From sequence record MF630922.1: DNA of 32,486 nucleotides. The stretch is one strand, 5' to 3'. The notes below the pieces were generated by a model, which saw only the letters and a list, made by a program, of their open reading frames with translations, did not search any database and had not been told where the DNA came from. Positions 26,829 through 32,486 of the stretch are shown in pieces. The DNA comes from Escherichia phage IMM-001. The first letter of the stretch is position 1; each line of letters opens with the position of its first letter. The position numbers and the translations under genes were made by a program.

Positions 26829-26870
26829 ACTATATCTCATTCTTGAGATTTGTCTTTAGCTATTCGTGCT
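26829..26870 (-). promoter_or_regulatory. Conserved IR promoter-like cassette copy 8, variant (AGCACGAATAGCTAAAG, 22 nt, TATAGT), overlapping the MTase stop
   Basis: Motif family on minus strand upstream of the lipoprotein gene. Confidence 0.5.
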
Positions 26871-27578
26871 GTTTATTCTATTTTTTGCGACATTAAAATA
26901 CTCAGTATCTAGCTCTATACCTATAAATGACCTGTTTGTGTTTACGCATGCTACGCCAGTTGTTCCGCTACCCATGCAGTTATCAAGAACTAAGTCACCC
27001 TCGTCAGTGTATGTTTTTATTAGGTACTCCATCAAGGAAACCGGCTTTTGCGTTGGGTGTAGTGATGATTTCTGCTTGTCGCTAGCCATCTTTATCACAT
27101 CCCTTGGGTATCTCATTGTTGAATCATAAGATAGTGATTCGAAATTCTGATCTCCATAGTTTGTTCCATTGTCGTTCCTCTTTGTTGCTGTTTTTCTTTT
27201 GTGACCCTCTGTCATTTGCGGGTTGTATTTGTAAGGTTTTTTGTAGAAAACAAGTATGTTTTCATGAGCCTTCATCGGAGCTCTCTTGGCATTAAGGTGT
27301 CCGGTTGCATGTGTTTTTTCCCATATCCACTCATGCTTCAACATTTCAAGATTGGAGCACCCGAGTACTTTATCGAATGGTGTTTGCGCCGTAAGTACAA
27401 TTGCACCCTTGCACACCCTCCTGTATTGAGTCCATAGCAAGTCAAGGTCTATAACTGAATCCCACTTGTTTCTGGTTGTTCCGTATGGTAAGTCGCACAA
27501 AATCATGTCAATTGAATTGTCTGGGATTTCTTTCATAAGCTCAAGGCAGTCGCCATTCATTAATTTAATCATTTCCAT
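26856..27578 (-). CDS. orphan DNA methyltransferase, beta-class, DPPY motif (240 aa; may start at second ATG 27572)
   Basis: Motif IV ILCDLPYG near N-terminus and motif I VLDNCMGSGTTG near C-terminus; no adjacent restriction enzyme gene. Confidence 0.8.
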   Translation of the reverse strand: MEMIKLMNGDCLELMKEIPDNSIDMILCDLPYGTTRNKWDSVIDLDLLWTQYRRVCKGAIVLTAQTPFDKVLGCSNLEMLKHEWIWEKTHATGHLNAKRAPMKAHENILVFYKKPYKYNPQMTEGHKRKTATKRNDNGTNYGDQNFESLSYDSTMRYPRDVIKMASDKQKSSLHPTQKPVSLMEYLIKTYTDEGDLVLDNCMGSGTTGVACVNTNRSFIGIELDTEYFNVAKNRINSTNS

Positions 27579-27603
27579 CTCTCATTGCGTTTTTGTTGTG
27601 ATG

Positions 27604-27646
27604 ATTATACATAACCAAGCAAGGGTGTCTTTAGCTATTCGTGCTA
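27604..27646 (-). promoter_or_regulatory. Conserved IR promoter-like cassette copy 9, variant (TAGCACGAATAGCTAAAG, 22 nt, TATAAT)
   Basis: Motif family on minus strand upstream of the MTase gene. Confidence 0.55.
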
Positions 27647-27745
27647 CTGGTTACGCGTAACCGATGTAAATCGATGTATACCATATGCATCCGCTGGAAA
27701 TCGTATACGCATTGTTACGCCTAGTTACGCCATAGTTACATTAAA

Positions 27746-27806
27746 ATATCTATATATATCAACCTTTTACTCTTATTATTATTATTATATATATTACTGT
27801 GTATAT
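27746..27806 (+). repeat. AT-rich repeat, copy B, containing (TTA)5 microsatellite at 27773..27787
   Basis: Shares core with 229..297; lies in the 535-bp ORF-free region between divergent blocks. Confidence 0.8.
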
Positions 27807-28113
27807 CATGTAACCACTGTTCTGGAGTGTTCCGGCTATAATTTTTATATCATGTGATTTTATACAGTATTTCGCGGCACATATACCAATGCACCACCCG
27901 CTAAAATCGGTATACACGGTATACGCATTATTTACATTGAGCTATAGCGGCCCAGCCGGAGCAGTTAAGCGTAACTAATGCCAATGTCTACACGTAATTA
28001 CAAAATTATACGCGTATACTTGATTAATTAATCGGGGATACCAATTAGACGTGGTGACAAGCGTTCTGCATAATTATCACATCGAAAGCAAACAACCATA
28101 GAGAGATAGAGAA

Positions 28114-28308
28114 ATGCCATACTTCATCATTAAAGAGAAAAAAAACGCACTGTTCGGAGATTGCTACTTCGGCGGTGAGGCTGGATATACAATTCACAAA
28201 TCTGAAGCGGACCGATTCGATACCAAGGAAGAGGCCAAGTCTATTCTGACTGGATATTTCACTGAGGAAGATTTGAAAGCTGTTAAGATTGTTAAAATTA
28301 AGGATTGA
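28114..28308 (+). CDS. hypothetical small protein (64 aa)
   Basis: First ORF of rightward block; RBS agagag. Confidence 0.45.
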   Translation: MPYFIIKEKKNALFGDCYFGGEAGYTIHKSEADRFDTKEEAKSILTGYFTEEDLKAVKIVKIKD

Positions 28309-28311
28309 ACC

Positions 28312-29283
28312 ATGACATTTACCGTATACACCAACGACGAACTAACAAACGAATCCTATCACGAAGAGCAGAGCCACATCTCTGGCTCTTCACTGGCTGA
28401 GATTCTCGCCACTTCACCAGCAAAATGGAAATTCAAGCAGCGCGATAACTCAAGCGCAGCACTTAAGTTTGGCACTCTAAGTCACTGCATGATGCTTGAG
28501 CGTGAGGCGTTCGATTCAACCTACATGCGAGCCACTGACTTTGATGAAGTTGAGGGGTTAATCACAAGCCAAACCGCGTTATCGGCAGCACTTAAGAAAG
28601 TTGGAGTTTCTGGTACGTCAGGAAAAGGCTATAACGAGCTAGTAGAGATGATGTACAAGTGCGGTGAGGATTGGCCTGTTAAGTGGCTAATTGAACAGCA
28701 GGAGAGCGCTGAGGCGTTAATTAGTGGCAAGGAGTTGGTTAGTGCGAAAGATTACGATAAGGTAATCGCAATGCGCGAGGTTCTGACCAATATCCCAGCT
28801 TACGATGCAGTTATTAATTCACCAACAGCGCAGAAAGAGCTATCAATCTTTGGTGAGATTCTTGGATGCGGCGTTAAGGTTAGACTTGACCATGTGGATG
28901 TTGTTGATGGCGCGGTTTACATTACTGACTACAAAACCACAGCAGACGCAAGTCCTCGAGGATTTGGTAAGTCGGCTTATGACCATGGATACCTTTGCAA
29001 GATGGCACTCCAGCGCGATTTGTTTGTTAAGGCGTTTAGCGAGAAGCGTAAGGTTGTAGTTCGTCTTCTGGCGCAGGAGAAGACAGAGCCTTATTTGCCA
29101 ATGTGCTACACGCTCACAGATGAGCAGCTTCACATTGGTCGCCTTCAATATATGGAAGCACTTGCCACGTACAAGCAGTGTAAGGAACTTGATGTTTGGC
29201 CTGGATACAGTAATGGGATTACAGAGCAAGATTTAATGATTCCTGAATGGGTAGCAAAACAATACGGAGAGATATTAAAATGA
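28312..29283 (+). CDS. PD-(D/E)xK family nuclease, RecB-like domain (323 aa); likely recombination exonuclease
   Basis: VRLDHVDVVD and YITDYKTT resemble nuclease motifs II and III (hhD / D-Y-K); sits upstream of Erf. Confidence 0.6.
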   Translation: MTFTVYTNDELTNESYHEEQSHISGSSLAEILATSPAKWKFKQRDNSSAALKFGTLSHCMMLEREAFDSTYMRATDFDEVEGLITSQTALSAALKKVGVSGTSGKGYNELVEMMYKCGEDWPVKWLIEQQESAEALISGKELVSAKDYDKVIAMREVLTNIPAYDAVINSPTAQKELSIFGEILGCGVKVRLDHVDVVDGAVYITDYKTTADASPRGFGKSAYDHGYLCKMALQRDLFVKAFSEKRKVVVRLLAQEKTEPYLPMCYTLTDEQLHIGRLQYMEALATYKQCKELDVWPGYSNGITEQDLMIPEWVAKQYGEILK

Positions 29284-29744
29284 ATAAAGATTGCTGGCAG
29301 ACACCATTAGAATTATTTAATCAACTAAATGATAAGTACAATTTCCAGGTTGACGCGTGCGCAAGTCAAGAGAATGCTTTGTGTGAGCATTTTTGGACCG
29401 AAGATGATGACTGTTTGCAGCAGGATTGGGGTGATGAAAATGATTTTGTTTGGTGCAACCCACCATACAGCAACCCATTGCCATTTGTCGAAAAGTGCCA
29501 GGAGTACGGTTACGCTGTTATGCTTTTAAATCAGGACACATCAACGAAATGGGCTAAGATAGTTTTTGAAAAATCCTCAAAGGTAATACTGTTATCAGAT
29601 AGGGTTAGGTTTATAAACCCATCGACGCTCGAGATTGGGAAGTCAAACCCAAAATGCCAGATGATTGTAGTGTTCGATAATAGTGTGGAGCATGGGCCTG
29701 TCATAAGGTGGTGCTCAATAAAAGATATTCACAAAAACATCTAA
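29280..29744 (+). CDS. Dam-like phage N6-adenine DNA methyltransferase (154 aa)
   Basis: N-terminal CWQTP and catalytic NPPY motifs; ATG 29280 overlaps upstream stop. Confidence 0.7.
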   Translation: MNKDCWQTPLELFNQLNDKYNFQVDACASQENALCEHFWTEDDDCLQQDWGDENDFVWCNPPYSNPLPFVEKCQEYGYAVMLLNQDTSTKWAKIVFEKSSKVILLSDRVRFINPSTLEIGKSNPKCQMIVVFDNSVEHGPVIRWCSIKDIHKNI

Positions 29745-29788
29745 ATAGCACTAATTGCTAAAGATAAAATTAACAGGTGTGGTATGAT
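29744..29788 (+). promoter_or_regulatory. Conserved IR promoter-like cassette copy 6 (AATAGCAC-taa-TTGCTAAA, 22 nt, TATGAT), overlapping the Dam-like stop
   Basis: Motif family; leader accacatcaacaacgagatgg. Confidence 0.55.
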
Positions 29789-29819
29789 TACCACATCAAC
29801 AACGAGATGGTTTAAGCAA

Positions 29820-29963
29820 ATGAAAGTATTTAAAAGTAAAATATGTAGCTACATTAAAATGGCCATTAATCGAAACGATGATATTATAAAAACAATAGAT
29901 ATAAAACCTGGCGACGAGGTTTTTGTCATAATCGAAAAGTCTATAGCGTTAGAACTTGCATAA
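29820..29963 (+). CDS. hypothetical small protein (47 aa, below threshold)
   Basis: ATG downstream of cassette copy 6; the in-frame upstream ATG 29784 lies in the promoter-like element. Confidence 0.3.
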   Translation: MKVFKSKICSYIKMAINRNDDIIKTIDIKPGDEVFVIIEKSIALELA

Positions 29964-30000
29964 TACATCTTAAAAAATTCAGAAAAACTAGAGGATTGAT

Positions 30001-30651
30001 ATGAACATTTCAGAATCATGCAAATCAATTTTAAACGCACTGCACACTGCTAAATCGCTATTTGCGAAGGCTGAGAAGTCAAAGCAAAACTCGCACTTAA
30101 AGAACAAGTACGCCACTTTAGAAGACGTTTTAGCAGCAGTTGAGCCAGGATTGGATGAGTGCGGTTTGGTAATGTTCCAAAGCGTAATAGATGATGAATC
30201 AACGAACCGAATAAAGGTTGAAACTAAGCTGTTTCATGCAGAATCTGGAGAATGGGTTAGCTTCTTAATGATTGTCCCAATCAGTAAGCAAGATGCTCAA
30301 GGTTACGGCTCTGCTCTTACATATGCTCGACGCTATGGCATTACAGCAGCCTTAGGGCTTAGCCAGGCTGATGATGATGGTAATCTTGCAGCTAAGGGTG
30401 TTAAAGACTTCAAGCGAGAACTTGAGAAGTGCAATACGCTCGATGAGCTTCGTAATGTCTGGAAGGAGGCTAAACAGTCACTTGATGCGGCAGGATGGAA
30501 GGTTTTCGAACCACACATTATCGAGCGCAAGGCAGAGATTCAGGCAAATGAAATGAATGGCTTCAACCCAGCCACGCCTAAGAAAGTTGCAGAAAAAAGT
30601 AGTGATAAAGAAAAGATTGAAGTAGAATCACAACAAATCGATACATTCTAA
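30001..30651 (+). CDS. erf: Erf-family single-strand annealing protein (216 aa)
   Basis: GSALTYARRYGITAALG hallmark and NSHLKNKYATLEDVL N-terminal motif; RBS gagga. Confidence 0.75.
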   Translation: MNISESCKSILNALHTAKSLFAKAEKSKQNSHLKNKYATLEDVLAAVEPGLDECGLVMFQSVIDDESTNRIKVETKLFHAESGEWVSFLMIVPISKQDAQGYGSALTYARRYGITAALGLSQADDDGNLAAKGVKDFKRELEKCNTLDELRNVWKEAKQSLDAAGWKVFEPHIIERKAEIQANEMNGFNPATPKKVAEKSSDKEKIEVESQQIDTF

Positions 30652-30693
30652 ATTAAACGGGGCTTCGGCCCCAGCAAACAGAGAGATAAAAAC

Positions 30694-31131
30694 ATGCACG
30701 TAATTACTGGTCAGATTCGCCGCGCTCCATTCACTAAAGAAGGTCAGAATGCTAATGGTACCTGGAAAATGTTTGCGGTTGATTTGAGTGAGCGATACAA
30801 AGATAAAGATGGTCAGACTCAGTATAGTAACTATCGCGCAGTCTTCTTCGCGAAAGAGTCAATTTTAGATTGGTATAATGAAGCATTTCAAGAAGGTAAA
30901 ATTGTTAGCGTTAGCGCTGAAAGTTTATCTGTAGATGTTCGAGATAAAGATGGCAAGACTTACGTAACAATCAATATGAATAATCCTCGACTTGAGTTTA
31001 GTCAGCGTGGAGATTCGCAACCACAACAAAATCAGAGACAGCAGCAGCAACAACAGCAGCAGAATAATCAGCAGAAGAGGCAACCACAACCACAACAACA
31101 GCAGCAGTTTGACGACTCCATTCCATTCTGA
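30694..31131 (+). CDS. ssb: single-stranded DNA-binding protein-like (145 aa) with poly-Gln linker and acidic tip
   Basis: C-terminal FDDSIPF resembles the SSB DDDIPF tail; preceded by a Gln-rich linker; N-terminal domain not canonical. Confidence 0.55.
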   Translation: MHVITGQIRRAPFTKEGQNANGTWKMFAVDLSERYKDKDGQTQYSNYRAVFFAKESILDWYNEAFQEGKIVSVSAESLSVDVRDKDGKTYVTINMNNPRLEFSQRGDSQPQQNQRQQQQQQQQNNQQKRQPQPQQQQQFDDSIPF

Positions 31132-31140
31132 TAAAAGATA

Positions 31141-31163
31141 AGGCCCCTTTCGGGGCCTTTTTA
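31141..31163. terminator. Bidirectional rho-independent terminator
   Basis: aggcccc-tttc-ggggcct then T5; convergent genes on both sides. Confidence 0.7.
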
Positions 31164-31691
31164 TGGCATGTTTACTCGAATTGAAACGAACGAGTCAGAA
31201 GGTATATCTATAGGGTCTCCGTTACTGAAGCCGTCAATTTTATTTCTCGCGAAAGACGGAGATGAATCGTGAGTGCGATGATAAGTTTTAACAACTATTG
31301 AACCATCAGCTTCAACCTCGTAATCTAGCCATATTCTAGGCTGCTTATTCAAGTCTACAGGTACCTCAAATCCACCGTTAACACCGCCCCAAGAAGTGTC
31401 AGAATTTAGGCCAAGCACACCTGATACCTTATAAACACCAGTAGAAACCCTCTCCACTGAAGCTCCTTCTGATTCCTCGTTTGTTTCAAAACTCCCATCT
31501 CGGAATACCTTAATTATAGGTGAGGCCACTTTGACGAAACCGCTAGGGTCCACTGTTGTGTTTAATCCGTGTAAAAGTTCCATTACCGCAAGTCCGCCAT
31601 TATAAGTTGAGTTAGCTATATAACAACGCCTTGCCCCATAAGATATGGCAAGCTGACCCCACTCGCGTGGAGTTGGGCCAGGCATATCCAT
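31161..31691 (-). CDS. tail-fibre-like protein, C-terminal part (176 aa from first ATG); frame stays open upstream to 31970 with no start codon
   Basis: Upstream in-frame translation ...NLQNKLQARSNLGLGTSATINHGDDAGQ... looks fibre-like; no ATG/GTG/TTG in 93 upstream codons. Confidence 0.4.
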   Translation of the reverse strand: MDMPGPTPREWGQLAISYGARRCYIANSTYNGGLAVMELLHGLNTTVDPSGFVKVASPIIKVFRDGSFETNEESEGASVERVSTGVYKVSGVLGLNSDTSWGGVNGGFEVPVDLNKQPRIWLDYEVEADGSIVVKTYHRTHDSSPSFARNKIDGFSNGDPIDIPSDSFVSIRVNMP

Positions 31692-32011: not shown

Positions 32012-32179
32012 TTAATCTTCATTTTTAAACCACCTTTCTTTAAGAACCTGAGCCCAAGACTTTGCATCATCTTCTGTCATGAAGAAACTTAATTTTGGGT
32101 ACTTGTGAAACCCCTTTAACTCAACAACCCAATGACCATTATTGTGACTGTAAGAAACTGTTTTTTCTTTCATTATTAC
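32012..32179 (-). CDS. hypothetical small protein (about 55 aa from internal ATG)
   Basis: ORF-track entry starts at a GTG inside structured leader; internal ATG has gagag upstream. Confidence 0.35.
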   Translation of the reverse strand, partial: VIMKEKTVSYSHNNGHWVVELKGFHKYPKLSFFMTEDDAKSWAQVLKERWFKNED

Positions 32180-32385
32180 CATCTCTCTATATTTGCTTGT
32201 TATCGAAATCTCTTCAACGTACTCGCTACAACTCGGGATTTTAAACCCGGCCCGGCATCCTGGCAAAAGGACCCGCAAGGCGCTTTGGTGGGTTAGGTAA
32301 CGCTTCCTCACATTGCGCGGTGTCGTTCACTCTTTTTGGTTCCTTTCGGAAGTGACTCAGAGTCCAGCACCGTTTCGATGAATAC

Positions 32386-32431
32386 ATAGTAGCAACTTAC
32401 TCATGATTGAGCATTAGCAAAAAGTGCTATT
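32386..32431 (-). promoter_or_regulatory. Conserved IR promoter-like cassette copy 7 (AATAGCAC-ttt-TTGCTAA, 23 nt, TACTAT)
   Basis: Reverse complement of 32414..32431 equals copy 4 motif; leader gtattcatcgaaacg. Confidence 0.5.
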
Positions 32432-32486
32432 CGTTGGATTTATTGATTGTTGCAGCTATTGCAATGATTCACATGACTATTGCACA

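Follow-up and report, generated by a model that had tools for sequence, protein, structure and literature searches.

Positions 28,312 to 31,131 of the DNA analysed here, a window of 32,486 nucleotides from Escherichia phage IMM-001 (MF630922.1), very probably hold a conserved early-gene recombination module of the Drexlerviridae type, a role suggested by sequence comparison, structural modelling and analogy with studied systems. IMM-001 is a virulent Rtp/T1-like siphophage of the Drexlerviridae, described as Rtp-like in the literature (PMC6301781); at the nucleotide level, the window is about 80% identical to 98 phage records, mostly from Drexlerviridae, and had no match among 5,426 complete E. 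coli genomes. The module genes in all likelihood form a single plus-strand operon running from an AT-rich control region (~27.6-28.1 kb) to a bidirectional terminator at 31140-31165. A preliminary description of this DNA had proposed an exonuclease/annealase pair with a Dam-like methyltransferase and a tiny ORF between them, followed by an SSB-like protein that has a linker rich in Gln and an acidic tip. All of these ORFs are present at the positions given below, and their family matches, the conservation of catalytic residues and of aromatic residues at three of four DNA-stacking positions, predicted structure and synteny agree on the pair and on the SSB with its linker and tip. The module was thus read correctly, and it is an ordinary, already annotated gene set of T1/Rtp-like coliphages, not a new one.

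The order nuclease, variable segment, Erf, SSB, terminator and tail fibre recurs in phages JeanPiccard, G8, TR2, EC3a, and T1 (ST29/28/27), and also in Klebsiella Webervirus, Pantoea Sauletekiovirus, and Salmonella Tlsvirus; Rtp carries an equivalent module too, as do JeanPiccard (bas02_0029-0033), EC3a, and Webervirus. T1 and the other Drexlerviridae genera share both the gene order and the annotations, with the exception of T1 ST27, which is still labelled 'hypothetical' in the T1 RefSeq record. In T1, ST29 (exonuclease VIII / RecE-like), ST28 (Erf-like), and ST27 follow one another in the same order and orientation as their IMM-001 counterparts, to which they are 46% (nuclease), 44% (Erf), and 45% (SSB) identical, and T1 also has the bidirectional terminator before a convergent tail-fibre gene and a hairpin between the erf and ssb cistrons. 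Relatives from the Braunvirinae are about 80% identical to IMM-001 in nucleotide sequence. The loci differ in their accessory genes: IMM-001, JeanPiccard, and G8, unlike T1, have a Dam gene between nuclease and Erf, IMM-001 has a small gene (orf64) upstream of the nuclease that was looked for and not found in the T1 locus, and the orphan orf59 is unique to IMM-001. Downstream of the module, the IMM-001 record has a broken context, with about 15 kb absent compared to its relatives. A literature search found no experimental work on the T1 orthologues of the module proteins, and all biochemical activities given here for these proteins are predictions drawn solely from their homology and synteny.

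By analogy with RecET, lambda Red, and P22 Erf, the module may act as follows. The RecE-type PD-DxK exonuclease would resect the 5' strand at double-stranded phage genome ends, and the OB domain of the phage SSB would coat the 3' single strand exposed in this way. The disordered Gln-rich linker of the SSB would present its host-like FDDSIPF tip, which could recruit the cognate Erf and probably also host SSB-interacting proteins. From there the single strand would pass to Erf oligomers, which would anneal it to a complementary one, whether in the terminal redundancy of another genome copy, on the lagging strand of a replication fork, or in a co-infecting phage. The outcome would be RecA-independent single-strand-annealing recombination, concatemer formation, and the repair or restart of replication. 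The contacts of Erf with SSB and with the nuclease in this scheme are conjecture.

The SSB is possibly a primarily replicative protein that acts with the phage primase and helicase and owes its place after erf to operon convenience, a role compatible with the one just outlined. Relatives carry a DNA primase (and primase/helicase) near the module, just beyond the tail-fibre gene, and a Vibrio phage encodes a member of the same SSB family without an exonuclease or Erf adjoining it; the SSB is therefore not strictly part of a recombination module and may serve replication primarily. Interactions of the SSB C-terminus are established, and a host-like tip would suit the recruitment of host replisome factors. 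However, in each of the nine Drexlerviridae loci examined, which represent at least six genera or subfamilies, ssb lies directly 3' of erf. Annealases, moreover, are known to need contact with an SSB, their function depending on SSB binding (PMC11611040), and in HK620 there is a precedent for a cognate SSB that, encoded beside an annealase, stimulates it: the last six residues of SSB(HK620) are required to load and stimulate its neighbour Sak4 (PMC5928155). Taken as an analogy, this pairing of a distant phage SSB with an adjacent phage annealase, like that of the IMM-001 SSB with Erf, is the best experimental counterpart of the proposed hand-off from SSB to Erf, although the families differ, SSB(HK620) being a DUF669 protein and Sak4 a RecA-like ATPase rather than an Erf.

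The nuclease gene (28312..29283, plus strand) encodes a predicted 5'->3' exonuclease of 323 aa of the RecE-type (DUF3799) PD-(D/E)xK group. Residues 37-303 match PF12684 (E 1e-22; 81.5 bits, the cut-off being 26), the protein matches PHROG 412 'exonuclease VIII' at E 4.5e-102, and a PDB search retrieves the RecE nuclease domain 3h4r at E 4.9e-10. The NCBIfam equivalog for full-length RecE matched over the C-terminal domain only, with a score below its cut-off, which is expected of a domain-only protein. In the alignment with 3h4r, the segments GTLSHC, RLD, and ITDYK of the phage protein pair with GTAFHC, RPD, and MDVK of RecE, so that the putative catalytic residues H58 (28483-28485), D193 (28888-28890), D206 (28927-28929), and K208 (28933-28935) align with RecE His652, Asp748, Asp759, and Lys761, and the His-652 and PD-DXK site of RecE have been described (PMC11611040). 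In RecE from the Rac prophage, the C-terminal nuclease domain is homologous to the IMM-001 nuclease and shares with it the RecE-specific His and the PD-DxK site, and by analogy single-strand annealing would involve an annealase partner in each case, RecT in Rac and Erf, together with the phage's own SSB, in IMM-001. The IMM-001 protein is without the ~560-residue N-terminal region of RecE (the nuclease domain is RecE 564-866), and one of its loops exceeds that of RecE by about 40 residues opposite RecE residues 673-687, where RecE has disordered DNA-binding loops. This extra loop and the diverse functions of PD-(D/E)xK nucleases would be in keeping with an enzyme that, without pairing with Erf, chiefly degrades host or competing DNA (to scavenge nucleotides or to shut off the host) or readies phage DNA for packaging, but such a role is improbable for a protein that belongs specifically to the RecE/DUF3799 subfamily, with a RecE-type His and PD-DxK site, and that, in the Drexlerviridae loci examined, is always encoded one to two genes 5' of erf, an exonuclease next to an annealase being the classic arrangement (reviewed in PMC11611040).

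The predicted annealase partner of this nuclease is a 216-aa Erf-family single-strand annealing protein (30001..30651, plus strand). Residues 12-130 form its N-terminal ERF domain, after which come a helical C-terminal region, a charged linker that varies, and, at the very C-terminus, the conserved motif SQQIDTF. It matches PF04404, the family of which P22 Erf is the founding member, at E 1.5e-27 (96.9 bits, the cut-off being 25), and PHROG 155 at 5e-47, with PHROG 2324 also matched, under the label 'Erf-like ssDNA annealing protein'. The structure of a homologue has been solved: the match to PDB 9y6u/9y9c 'Gp77' (E 3.1e-54) pairs residues 1-213 with 1-213, and the chain in these entries matches the annotated Erf of Drexlerviridae coliphages, SLUR29 and orkinos among them, at 100% identity. 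P22 Erf works with Abc1/Abc2, which hijack RecBCD, and without an exonuclease of its own (PMC5928155); unlike P22, IMM-001 has genes for a dedicated nuclease of the RecE-like kind and for a phage SSB.

The third protein, of 145 aa (30694..31131, plus strand), consists of an OB domain, the Gln-rich linker, and the acidic tip, and, judged by family profile and modelled structure, it is a divergent but genuine SSB with a bacterial SSB/PriB-type OB fold. The preliminary description had called its N-terminal region atypical, which holds for the sequence: there is no match to PF00436 at E<=0.1, TIGR00621 (NCBIfam) scores 23.2 bits, under its cut-off of 53.95, a single-sequence phmmer search of the PDB found no SSB, and none of 120 close homologues carries a precomputed Pfam domain. 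The predicted fold of this domain (residues 1-107, 30694..31014), however, is still that of an SSB. The protein matches PHROG 44 at 6.5e-28, and a profile built from 79 family members finds Klebsiella SSB 7f2n (3.5e-10) and E. coli SSB 1eqq (3.7e-7) in the PDB, as well as the tail-less yeast Rim1 (5e-6, profile positions 4-117). The AF2 model is confident over residues 1-100 (pLDDT 94-97) and has at least five strands, with strands in 2-54, a helix at 55-64, and strands in 70-103; in a Foldseek search of the PDB with this model, the best 31 matches are all cellular SSBs, including 14 of 14 with E<=1e-3, with probability 1.00 and moderate TM-scores (0.4-0.56 on the target; rmsd 5-6 Å), and the hits belong exclusively to SSB/PriB. 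Like E. coli SSB (EcSSB; PF00436, PDB 1eqq/1eyg), the phage protein would combine an SSB-type OB fold with a disordered linker containing Gln and Pro and a D-D-x-I-P-F tip, at 15-20% identity over the aligned structures and with 145 aa to the 178 aa of EcSSB. Y35, Y47, and F52 align with the ssDNA-stacking residues W40, W54, and F60 of EcSSB, and R48 and K54 with its R56 and K62; within the family, all 79 sequences have Y47, and 72 of the 79 have F52. EcSSB W88 is replaced by Arg (R83), with Tyr or Phe at this position in 42 of the 79 family members, and EcSSB His55 is without a counterpart in the alignment.

The linker occupies residues 108-138 (31015..31107, about 31020..31105 in the preliminary description) and is predicted to be disordered, with AF2 pLDDT of 46-60 and low values throughout residues 106-145. 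Its 31 residues include 21 Gln (68%), while the linker of EcSSB is longer and made up of Gly, Gln, and Pro. The acidic tip FDDSIPF follows (31108..31131 with the stop codon), so that the protein ends in ...QQFDDSIPF; in the profile search, the tip aligns with the C-terminus of E. coli and Klebsiella SSB (host sequence DFDDDIPF), and all 120 close homologues have a [DE]-x-IPF tip, as do 63 of 113 distant representatives. The Gln codons of the linker are a mixture of CAG and CAA (17 and 10, respectively, in the whole ssb gene), interleaved with AAT, AGA, CCA, and AAG. This composition does not bear out the earlier proposal that the tract is prone to slippage, for the longest pure CAG run is three units, and pure triplet runs reach at most three units in IMM-001 and at most four in six relatives. 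Any slippage would stay in frame. The comparison of linker lengths that had been suggested does reveal variation, in a tract that is not a pure triplet repeat: across 114 close homologues the linker ranges from 24 to 35 aa, 103 of the 114 linker sequences are unique, and the 106-aa core is constant in length. Sequence comparison thus points to a linker whose length varies over evolutionary time. That the tract is a contingency locus, in which slippage often makes the linker longer or shorter among the phages of one population and so tunes SSB function, could produce such a spread of lengths beside an unchanging core but is very improbable, as the pure runs are short, Tandem Repeats Finder reports only eight imperfect CAG-like units (31039-31062) at marginal scores of 33-41, and the linkers of relatives show many substitutions as well, a pattern that fits a fast-evolving disordered region and not a simple repeat-number switch.

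The genes between nuclease and Erf are accessory cargo in a variable junction. The first, on the plus strand, encodes a 154-aa phage Dam-family N6-adenine DNA methyltransferase (29280..29744), with clear matches to PF05869 (E 5.2e-40, 137.3 bits against a cut-off of 28.1) and TIGR01712 (111.8 bits against 97.05) and the catalytic (D/N)PPY motif in the form WCNPPYSN. The longest ORF begins at 29247, but the ATG at 29280 is the most likely start because a GGAGAG Shine-Dalgarno sequence lies 8 nt upstream, the start forms an ATGA overlap with the nuclease stop codon, and the resulting 154 aa are as in JeanPiccard and G8; through this overlap, Dam translation is probably coupled to that of the nuclease. 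Dam is without a counterpart at the junction in EC3a and T1, TR2 has an HNH gene there instead, and the methyltransferase gene counts as an accessory one inserted here, its product not being a recombination protein. The second ORF, orf59 (29784..29963, plus strand, 59 aa), is an orphan small ORF preceded by an AGGTG Shine-Dalgarno-like sequence, and it is uncertain whether it is a real gene: it had no match above threshold in Pfam (a MazE/AbrB-like hit at E 0.024 only), none in PHROG, and none by tblastn against 50,697 phage records. JeanPiccard has a 71-aa ORF at the same place, which we considered as an equivalent of orf59 and rejected as unrelated.

The noncoding elements around these genes are consistent with a single transcription unit. 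The AT-rich control region (27579..28113), which separates a divergent minus-strand methyltransferase gene from the plus-strand operon and has no ORF of at least 30 aa on the plus strand between 27660 and 28114, is the probable promoter/operator of the operon; in phage EC3a, promoters are annotated at the equivalent position. Several repeated sequences occur here. One copy of a ~70-nt element lies at 27746-27812 and aligns with another at positions 229-300 of the window, the 25-mer ATATCTATATATATCAACCTTTTAC occurs exactly twice where no occurrence is expected, and GTATAC (15 occurrences, 5.45 expected) and GTTACGC (14 occurrences, 2.7 expected) each have five occurrences clustered in the control region. 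The first gene of the operon is orf64 (28114..28308, plus strand), whose stop lies 3 nt before the nuclease start. It encodes a small conserved, lineage-specific protein that also precedes the nuclease in JeanPiccard, G8, TR2, and EC3a, matches PHROG 35664/5247 (category unknown function), and has 36 homologue clusters at 70-89% identity, none of the 36 with a Pfam domain; a fold search with its AF2 model (pLDDT 83.7) gave no significant PDB match and, in BFVD, only uncharacterised phage proteins. Between erf and ssb lies a GC-rich hairpin with a UUCG loop (30658..30673, plus strand; core CGGGGC-TTCG-GCCCCA) that has a fold energy of -11.1 kcal/mol and no T-run 3' of it. Its position is kept in G8, TR2, JeanPiccard, and EC3a, and likewise in T1 with a different stem sequence, and it is possibly an element of RNA stability, processing, or attenuation. 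The bidirectional intrinsic terminator (31140..31165), found by a terminator scan, consists of AAGGCCCC-TTTC-GGGGCCTT followed by TTTTAT and closes the operon on the plus strand as well as the tail-fibre gene that converges on it; its hairpin (-15.7 kcal/mol) is kept in JeanPiccard, G8, TR2, EC3a, and T1, and the T1 and EC3a records have terminators annotated on both strands at the equivalent site.

A set of nuclease, annealase, and SSB is common to all T1/Rtp-like coliphages. One could go further and combine these features into a joint picture, which we regard as doubtful: the host-mimicking tip of the SSB, on a fast-evolving poly-Gln tether, would be a hub to the host SSB interactome that hands ssDNA to Erf, the I-x-x-F peptide at the Erf C-terminus (SQQIDTF) would dock Erf to the nuclease or the SSB, and the conserved orf64 could be a further, so far unrecognised accessory factor of the nuclease. 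Several defence systems sense phage SSBs or annealases, including Retron-Eco8, DARNA, Hna, AbpAB, and Avs21, and if this picture is true, the rapid changes in the length and sequence of the linker would be the mark of an arms race against those defences.

The recombination module of Escherichia phage IMM-001 is of a kind already known, for which the phage T1 reference record and numerous Drexlerviridae genomes already have annotations. Its single-strand-binding protein (SSB), the 145-aa product encoded at 30694..31131 (+) with the C-terminus FDDSIPF, drew no match from the Pfam SSB model at E ≤ 0.1 and scored 23 bits against NCBIfam TIGR00621, below the cut-off of 54; a single-sequence search of the PDB matched no SSB, and a precomputed Pfam domain is attached to none of its 120 nearest homologues in the database. 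HMMER, run exhaustively over 1.84 billion representatives, found no more than 114 clusters at E ≤ 1e-3, and canonical SSBs are among the weakest of them. A profile of 79 diverse family members, searched against the PDB, found Klebsiella SSB (7f2n, E 3.5e-10), E. coli SSB (3.7e-7), and Rim1 (5e-6); yeast mitochondrial Rim1 has no acidic tail, so that match depends on the OB domain alone. The AlphaFold2 model built from the same alignment (pLDDT 94-97 at residues 1-100) has a beta barrel with a helix spanning residues 55-64, becomes disordered at about residue 106 and stays so through the tail, and in a Foldseek search of the PDB its 31 best matches are cellular SSBs, including all 14 at E ≤ 1e-3, with a phage SSB and PriB lower down (probability 1.00 for the SSB matches; target-normalised TM 0.4-0.56). 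With E. coli SSB placed on the family HMM, the ssDNA-stacking residues W40, W54, and F60 correspond to Y35, Y47, and F52, of which Y47 is invariant in 79/79 family sequences and F52 is present in 72/79; R56 and K62 correspond to R48 and K54, and W88 corresponds to R83, a position held by Tyr or Phe in 42 of the 79 members. It is therefore a true, if divergent, protein of the SSB-type OB fold, and it has the three canonical parts: an OB domain, a disordered linker, and an acidic tip ending in IPF. We rejected membership of another OB family, of the T7 gp2.5 or HK620 DUF669 type, since bacterial-type SSB/PriB is all that the profile and fold searches indicate. The preliminary description had called the N-terminal region atypical, which holds for its sequence, divergent enough to fall below the Pfam and NCBIfam thresholds, but not for its fold. 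With the OB domain alone, tblastn reached 1,194 records of phages that include those of Klebsiella, Vibrio, Escherichia, Shigella, and Salmonella; SSB is the annotation in many of these records, and the GenBank record of IMM-001 itself gives the product (100% identical) the name 'single-stranded DNA binding protein'. Some records, including T1 ST27, still have family members as 'hypothetical'. The family lies under the Pfam and NCBIfam thresholds; profile or structure searches assign its members confidently.

The SSB gene sits in a conserved gene order. Nuclease, a variable slot, Erf, SSB, a bidirectional terminator, and a convergent tail-fibre gene follow one another in JeanPiccard, G8, TR2, and EC3a, and T1 has an equal order of genes, annotated as 'exonuclease VIII' (ST29), 'Erf-like ssDNA annealing protein' (ST28), and 'hypothetical protein' (ST27), to which the IMM-001 proteins are 46%, 44%, and 45% identical, respectively. 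The module order recurs in Klebsiella Webervirus, Pantoea Sauletekiovirus, and Salmonella Tlsvirus. One Vibrio phage, however, carries a gene of the SSB family without an adjoining exonuclease or Erf, so the SSB is not exclusively a recombination-module gene. It is possible, if less favored, that the IMM-001 SSB serves primarily in replication, together with the primase and helicase encoded nearby in relatives, a role that would be compatible with one in recombination.

The nuclease (28312..29283, +) matches DUF3799, the PDDEXK-like family of RecE, in Pfam (E 1e-22) and 'exonuclease VIII' in PHROGs (E 4.5e-102), and its sole match in a sequence search of the PDB is the RecE nuclease domain 3h4r (E 4.9e-10). 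In that alignment, GTLSH58C, RLD193, and ITD206-Y-K208 stand opposite GTAFH-C, RPD, and MD-V-K of RecE, so that H58, D193, D206, and K208 have His652, Asp748, Asp759, and Lys761 (chain numbering) as counterparts; His-652 and the PD-DXK signature are what set RecE apart from lambda Exo (PMC11611040). The PD-(D/E)xK nuclease read from the sequence in the preliminary description is thus borne out and is of the RecE type, and all of the open reading frames named there were recovered at their coordinates. Unlike RecE, the IMM-001 protein is a stand-alone nuclease domain, lacking the long N-terminal region, and its residues 79-133 (about 55) lie opposite a stretch of some 15 residues in the DNA-binding loop that is disordered in RecE. 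That such a nuclease serves degradation alone would be quite improbable because it belongs to the RecE/DUF3799 subfamily and is invariably paired with erf.

Erf (30001..30651, +) matches PF04404 over residues 12-130 (E 1.5e-27), and the whole protein aligns with the chain named 'Gp77' of PDB 9y6u/9y9c (E 3.1e-54). By tblastn, this chain was traced to Drexlerviridae coliphages (SLUR29, orkinos, and others), whose annotated Erf it matches at 100% identity; Gp77 is therefore a Drexlerviridae Erf, and a close homologue in the same phage family already has a solved structure. At the extreme C-terminus (residues 210-216, nt 30628-30648), after a variable charged linker rich in Lys, Glu, and Pro, there is a short I-x-x-F motif that persists across genera: SQQIDTF in IMM-001, SQSITNFE in T1, AQDISSFN in a Klebsiella Webervirus, and TPIENFE in Pantoea phage AAS23. 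Judged from sequence, this terminus looks like a docking peptide, for which the nuclease, the SSB, or a host protein would be candidate partners.

The SSB linker (residues 108-138, nt 31015-31107, +) is rich in glutamine (21 of 31 residues), encoded by interleaved CAG and CAA codons, and is followed by the acidic FDDSIPF tip at the C-terminus, both as expected from the preliminary description. The description had also held the tract to be slippage-prone, and this part fares less well: the longest pure CAG run is 3 units, pure triplet runs in the linkers of six relatives reach 2-4 units, and Tandem Repeats Finder reports marginal arrays only (scores 33-41), the best being 8 imperfect CAG-like units at 31039-31062. 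The proposed comparison of linker lengths found cores 89-99% identical to that of IMM-001 and 106 aa long in 113 of 114 close homologues, and linkers of 24-35 aa, 103 of the 114 unique. Such plasticity in length is the behaviour expected of a disordered low-complexity tether and supports slippage only indirectly. Slippage here would stay in frame and so would produce no on/off switching, and a contingency locus driven by slippage is highly improbable because the codon pattern is interrupted. The SSB tails of Drexlerviridae that infect Klebsiella, Pantoea, and Salmonella nearly copy the host SSB tail (for example, ...GGWGQPQQP...NEPPMDFDDDIPF): the SSB genes in three loci (L008, 3501-3983; L010, 3501-3947; L011, 3501-3929; locus numbering) encode GGWGQPQQP and/or NEPPMDFDDDIPF, also found in the E. 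coli SSB tail, joined to a divergent phage-type OB domain. These sequences suggest either acquisition from host SSB or strong convergence on it. Compared with them, the IMM-001 tail is more derived, with poly-Gln and then FDDSIPF.

The slot between nuclease and Erf varies among relatives: Dam is accompanied by an unrelated small ORF in JeanPiccard and stands by itself in G8, TR2 has an HNH endonuclease there and Webervirus a small ORF, and in EC3a and T1 the slot is empty. In IMM-001 it holds Dam and a 59-aa ORF, orf59 (29784..29963, +), for which we found no function and no homologue in 50,697 phage records. The Dam frame is readable from 29247, but its true start is almost certainly, on sequence features, ATG 29280 (29280..29744, +), which has a GGAGAG Shine-Dalgarno 8 nt upstream, an ATGA overlap with the nuclease stop, and a 154-aa product, the size that the JeanPiccard and G8 products also have. 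Just before the nuclease gene, orf64 (28114-28308, +; 64 aa) is well conserved in Braunvirinae relatives, with 28 invariant positions across 29 sequences (for example, NALFGDCYFGG), and in EC3a and Rtp forms the C-terminal portion of a longer ORF; no copy was detected at the locus in T1, and neither a homologue search nor Foldseek of a confident AlphaFold2 model against the PDB and BFVD gave an informative match. Divergent from the recombination operon lies a second DNA methyltransferase (26856-27578, minus; N6_N4_Mtase PF01555, E 6.8e-31), whose position is taken by a Dcm-like C5 methyltransferase in JeanPiccard and an anti-repressor in G8 and is therefore another variable slot. An assignment of the module proteins to defence or anti-defence was rejected, as a PADLOC scan gave only orphan-methyltransferase matches for Dam and none for nuclease, Erf, or SSB.

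Several nucleic acid elements accompany these genes. The erf-ssb gap contains a GC-rich tetraloop hairpin (30658-30673, +) that recurs at this position in five relatives, among them T1, whose stem sequence differs. Because no T-run follows, it was rejected as a plus-strand terminator; its conservation suggests a function at the RNA level, whether in stability, in processing, or in attenuation. Past ssb lies a conserved terminator, for which T1 and EC3a have annotations on both strands. An AT-rich element of about 70 nt (ATATCTATATATATCAACCTTTTAC...(TTA)n...TACTGTGTATA) occurs at 229-300 and 27746-27812, both in non-coding DNA ahead of plus-strand genes, and its 25-mer core is present exactly twice (0 expected); it is probably a repeated phage promoter or regulatory element. 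GTATAC occurs 15 times in the window against 5.45 expected (5 within 27676-28019, 3 within 133-297) and GTTACGC 14 times against 2.7 (5 within 27650-27975, including the palindrome GGTTACGCGTAACC), and their clusters in the divergent control region that precedes the recombination operon are candidate operator sites.

IMM-001 has been described as an Rtp-like siphophage specific for CS7-ETEC, with ORF numbers that follow phage T1 (PMC6301781). For the region 28000-31200, 98 phage records matched with a nucleotide identity of about 80%, almost all of them from Drexlerviridae coliphages such as JeanPiccard, vB_Ec-G8, TR2, and the vB_EcoS series. Megablast against 5,426 complete E. coli genomes found no match, which rules out prophage or host DNA as its origin. 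Downstream, a convergent 176-aa ORF (31161..31691, minus) with a C-terminal PF25670 domain only is a remnant of the tail-fibre gene, which is 1.5-2.8 kb in relatives and of which no more than the final 176 codons survive in the record. The closing ~420 nt of the window (32064-32486) correspond to T145P1/G8 sequence ~15 kb further downstream, so that the record is without ~15 kb that relatives have, including the remainder of the tail fibre, primase, and helicase. Either the DNA was truly deleted or the gap arose in the assembly of 50-nt single-end reads.

If RecET, lambda Red, and P22 Erf are taken as models, together with established SSB biology, the module most likely works as follows: the RecE-type nuclease would resect 5' strands at double-stranded ends, the phage SSB would coat the resulting 3' tails, and Erf, plausibly recruited to the SSB-coated DNA via the FDDSIPF tip, would anneal the coated strand to complementary single-stranded DNA. 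In this way the module would recombine DNA independently of RecA, link terminally redundant genomes into concatemers, and repair forks. Annealase function in vivo needs SSB contact (PMC11611040), and a distant phage SSB beside the HK620 annealase Sak4 stimulates it via the last six residues of the SSB (PMC5928155), although the HK620 SSB is DUF669, unlike the bacterial-type SSB of IMM-001. Studies of SSB-sensing defence (Retron-Eco8, DARNA) concern the SSBs of T7, T5, T4, and SECphi4, all outside the family of the IMM-001 SSB.

The core of the preliminary reading as a recombination module is thus right, its weakness being confined to slippage. IMM-001 has a standard Drexlerviridae RecE-like/Erf/SSB module, the significance of which lies mostly in correct annotation; least ordinary are an SSB family beneath curated HMM thresholds, the Erf I-x-x-F terminus, the erf-ssb hairpin, the uncharacterised orf64, and the ~15-kb gap. 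A compact nuclease, Erf, and cognate SSB from a virulent coliphage may form a recombineering toolkit, and annealase portability depends on SSB tails. For phage therapy, IMM-001 is relevant as a phage against enterotoxigenic E. coli that express CS7, and efficient recombination without RecA favors mosaicism among co-infecting T1-like phages.
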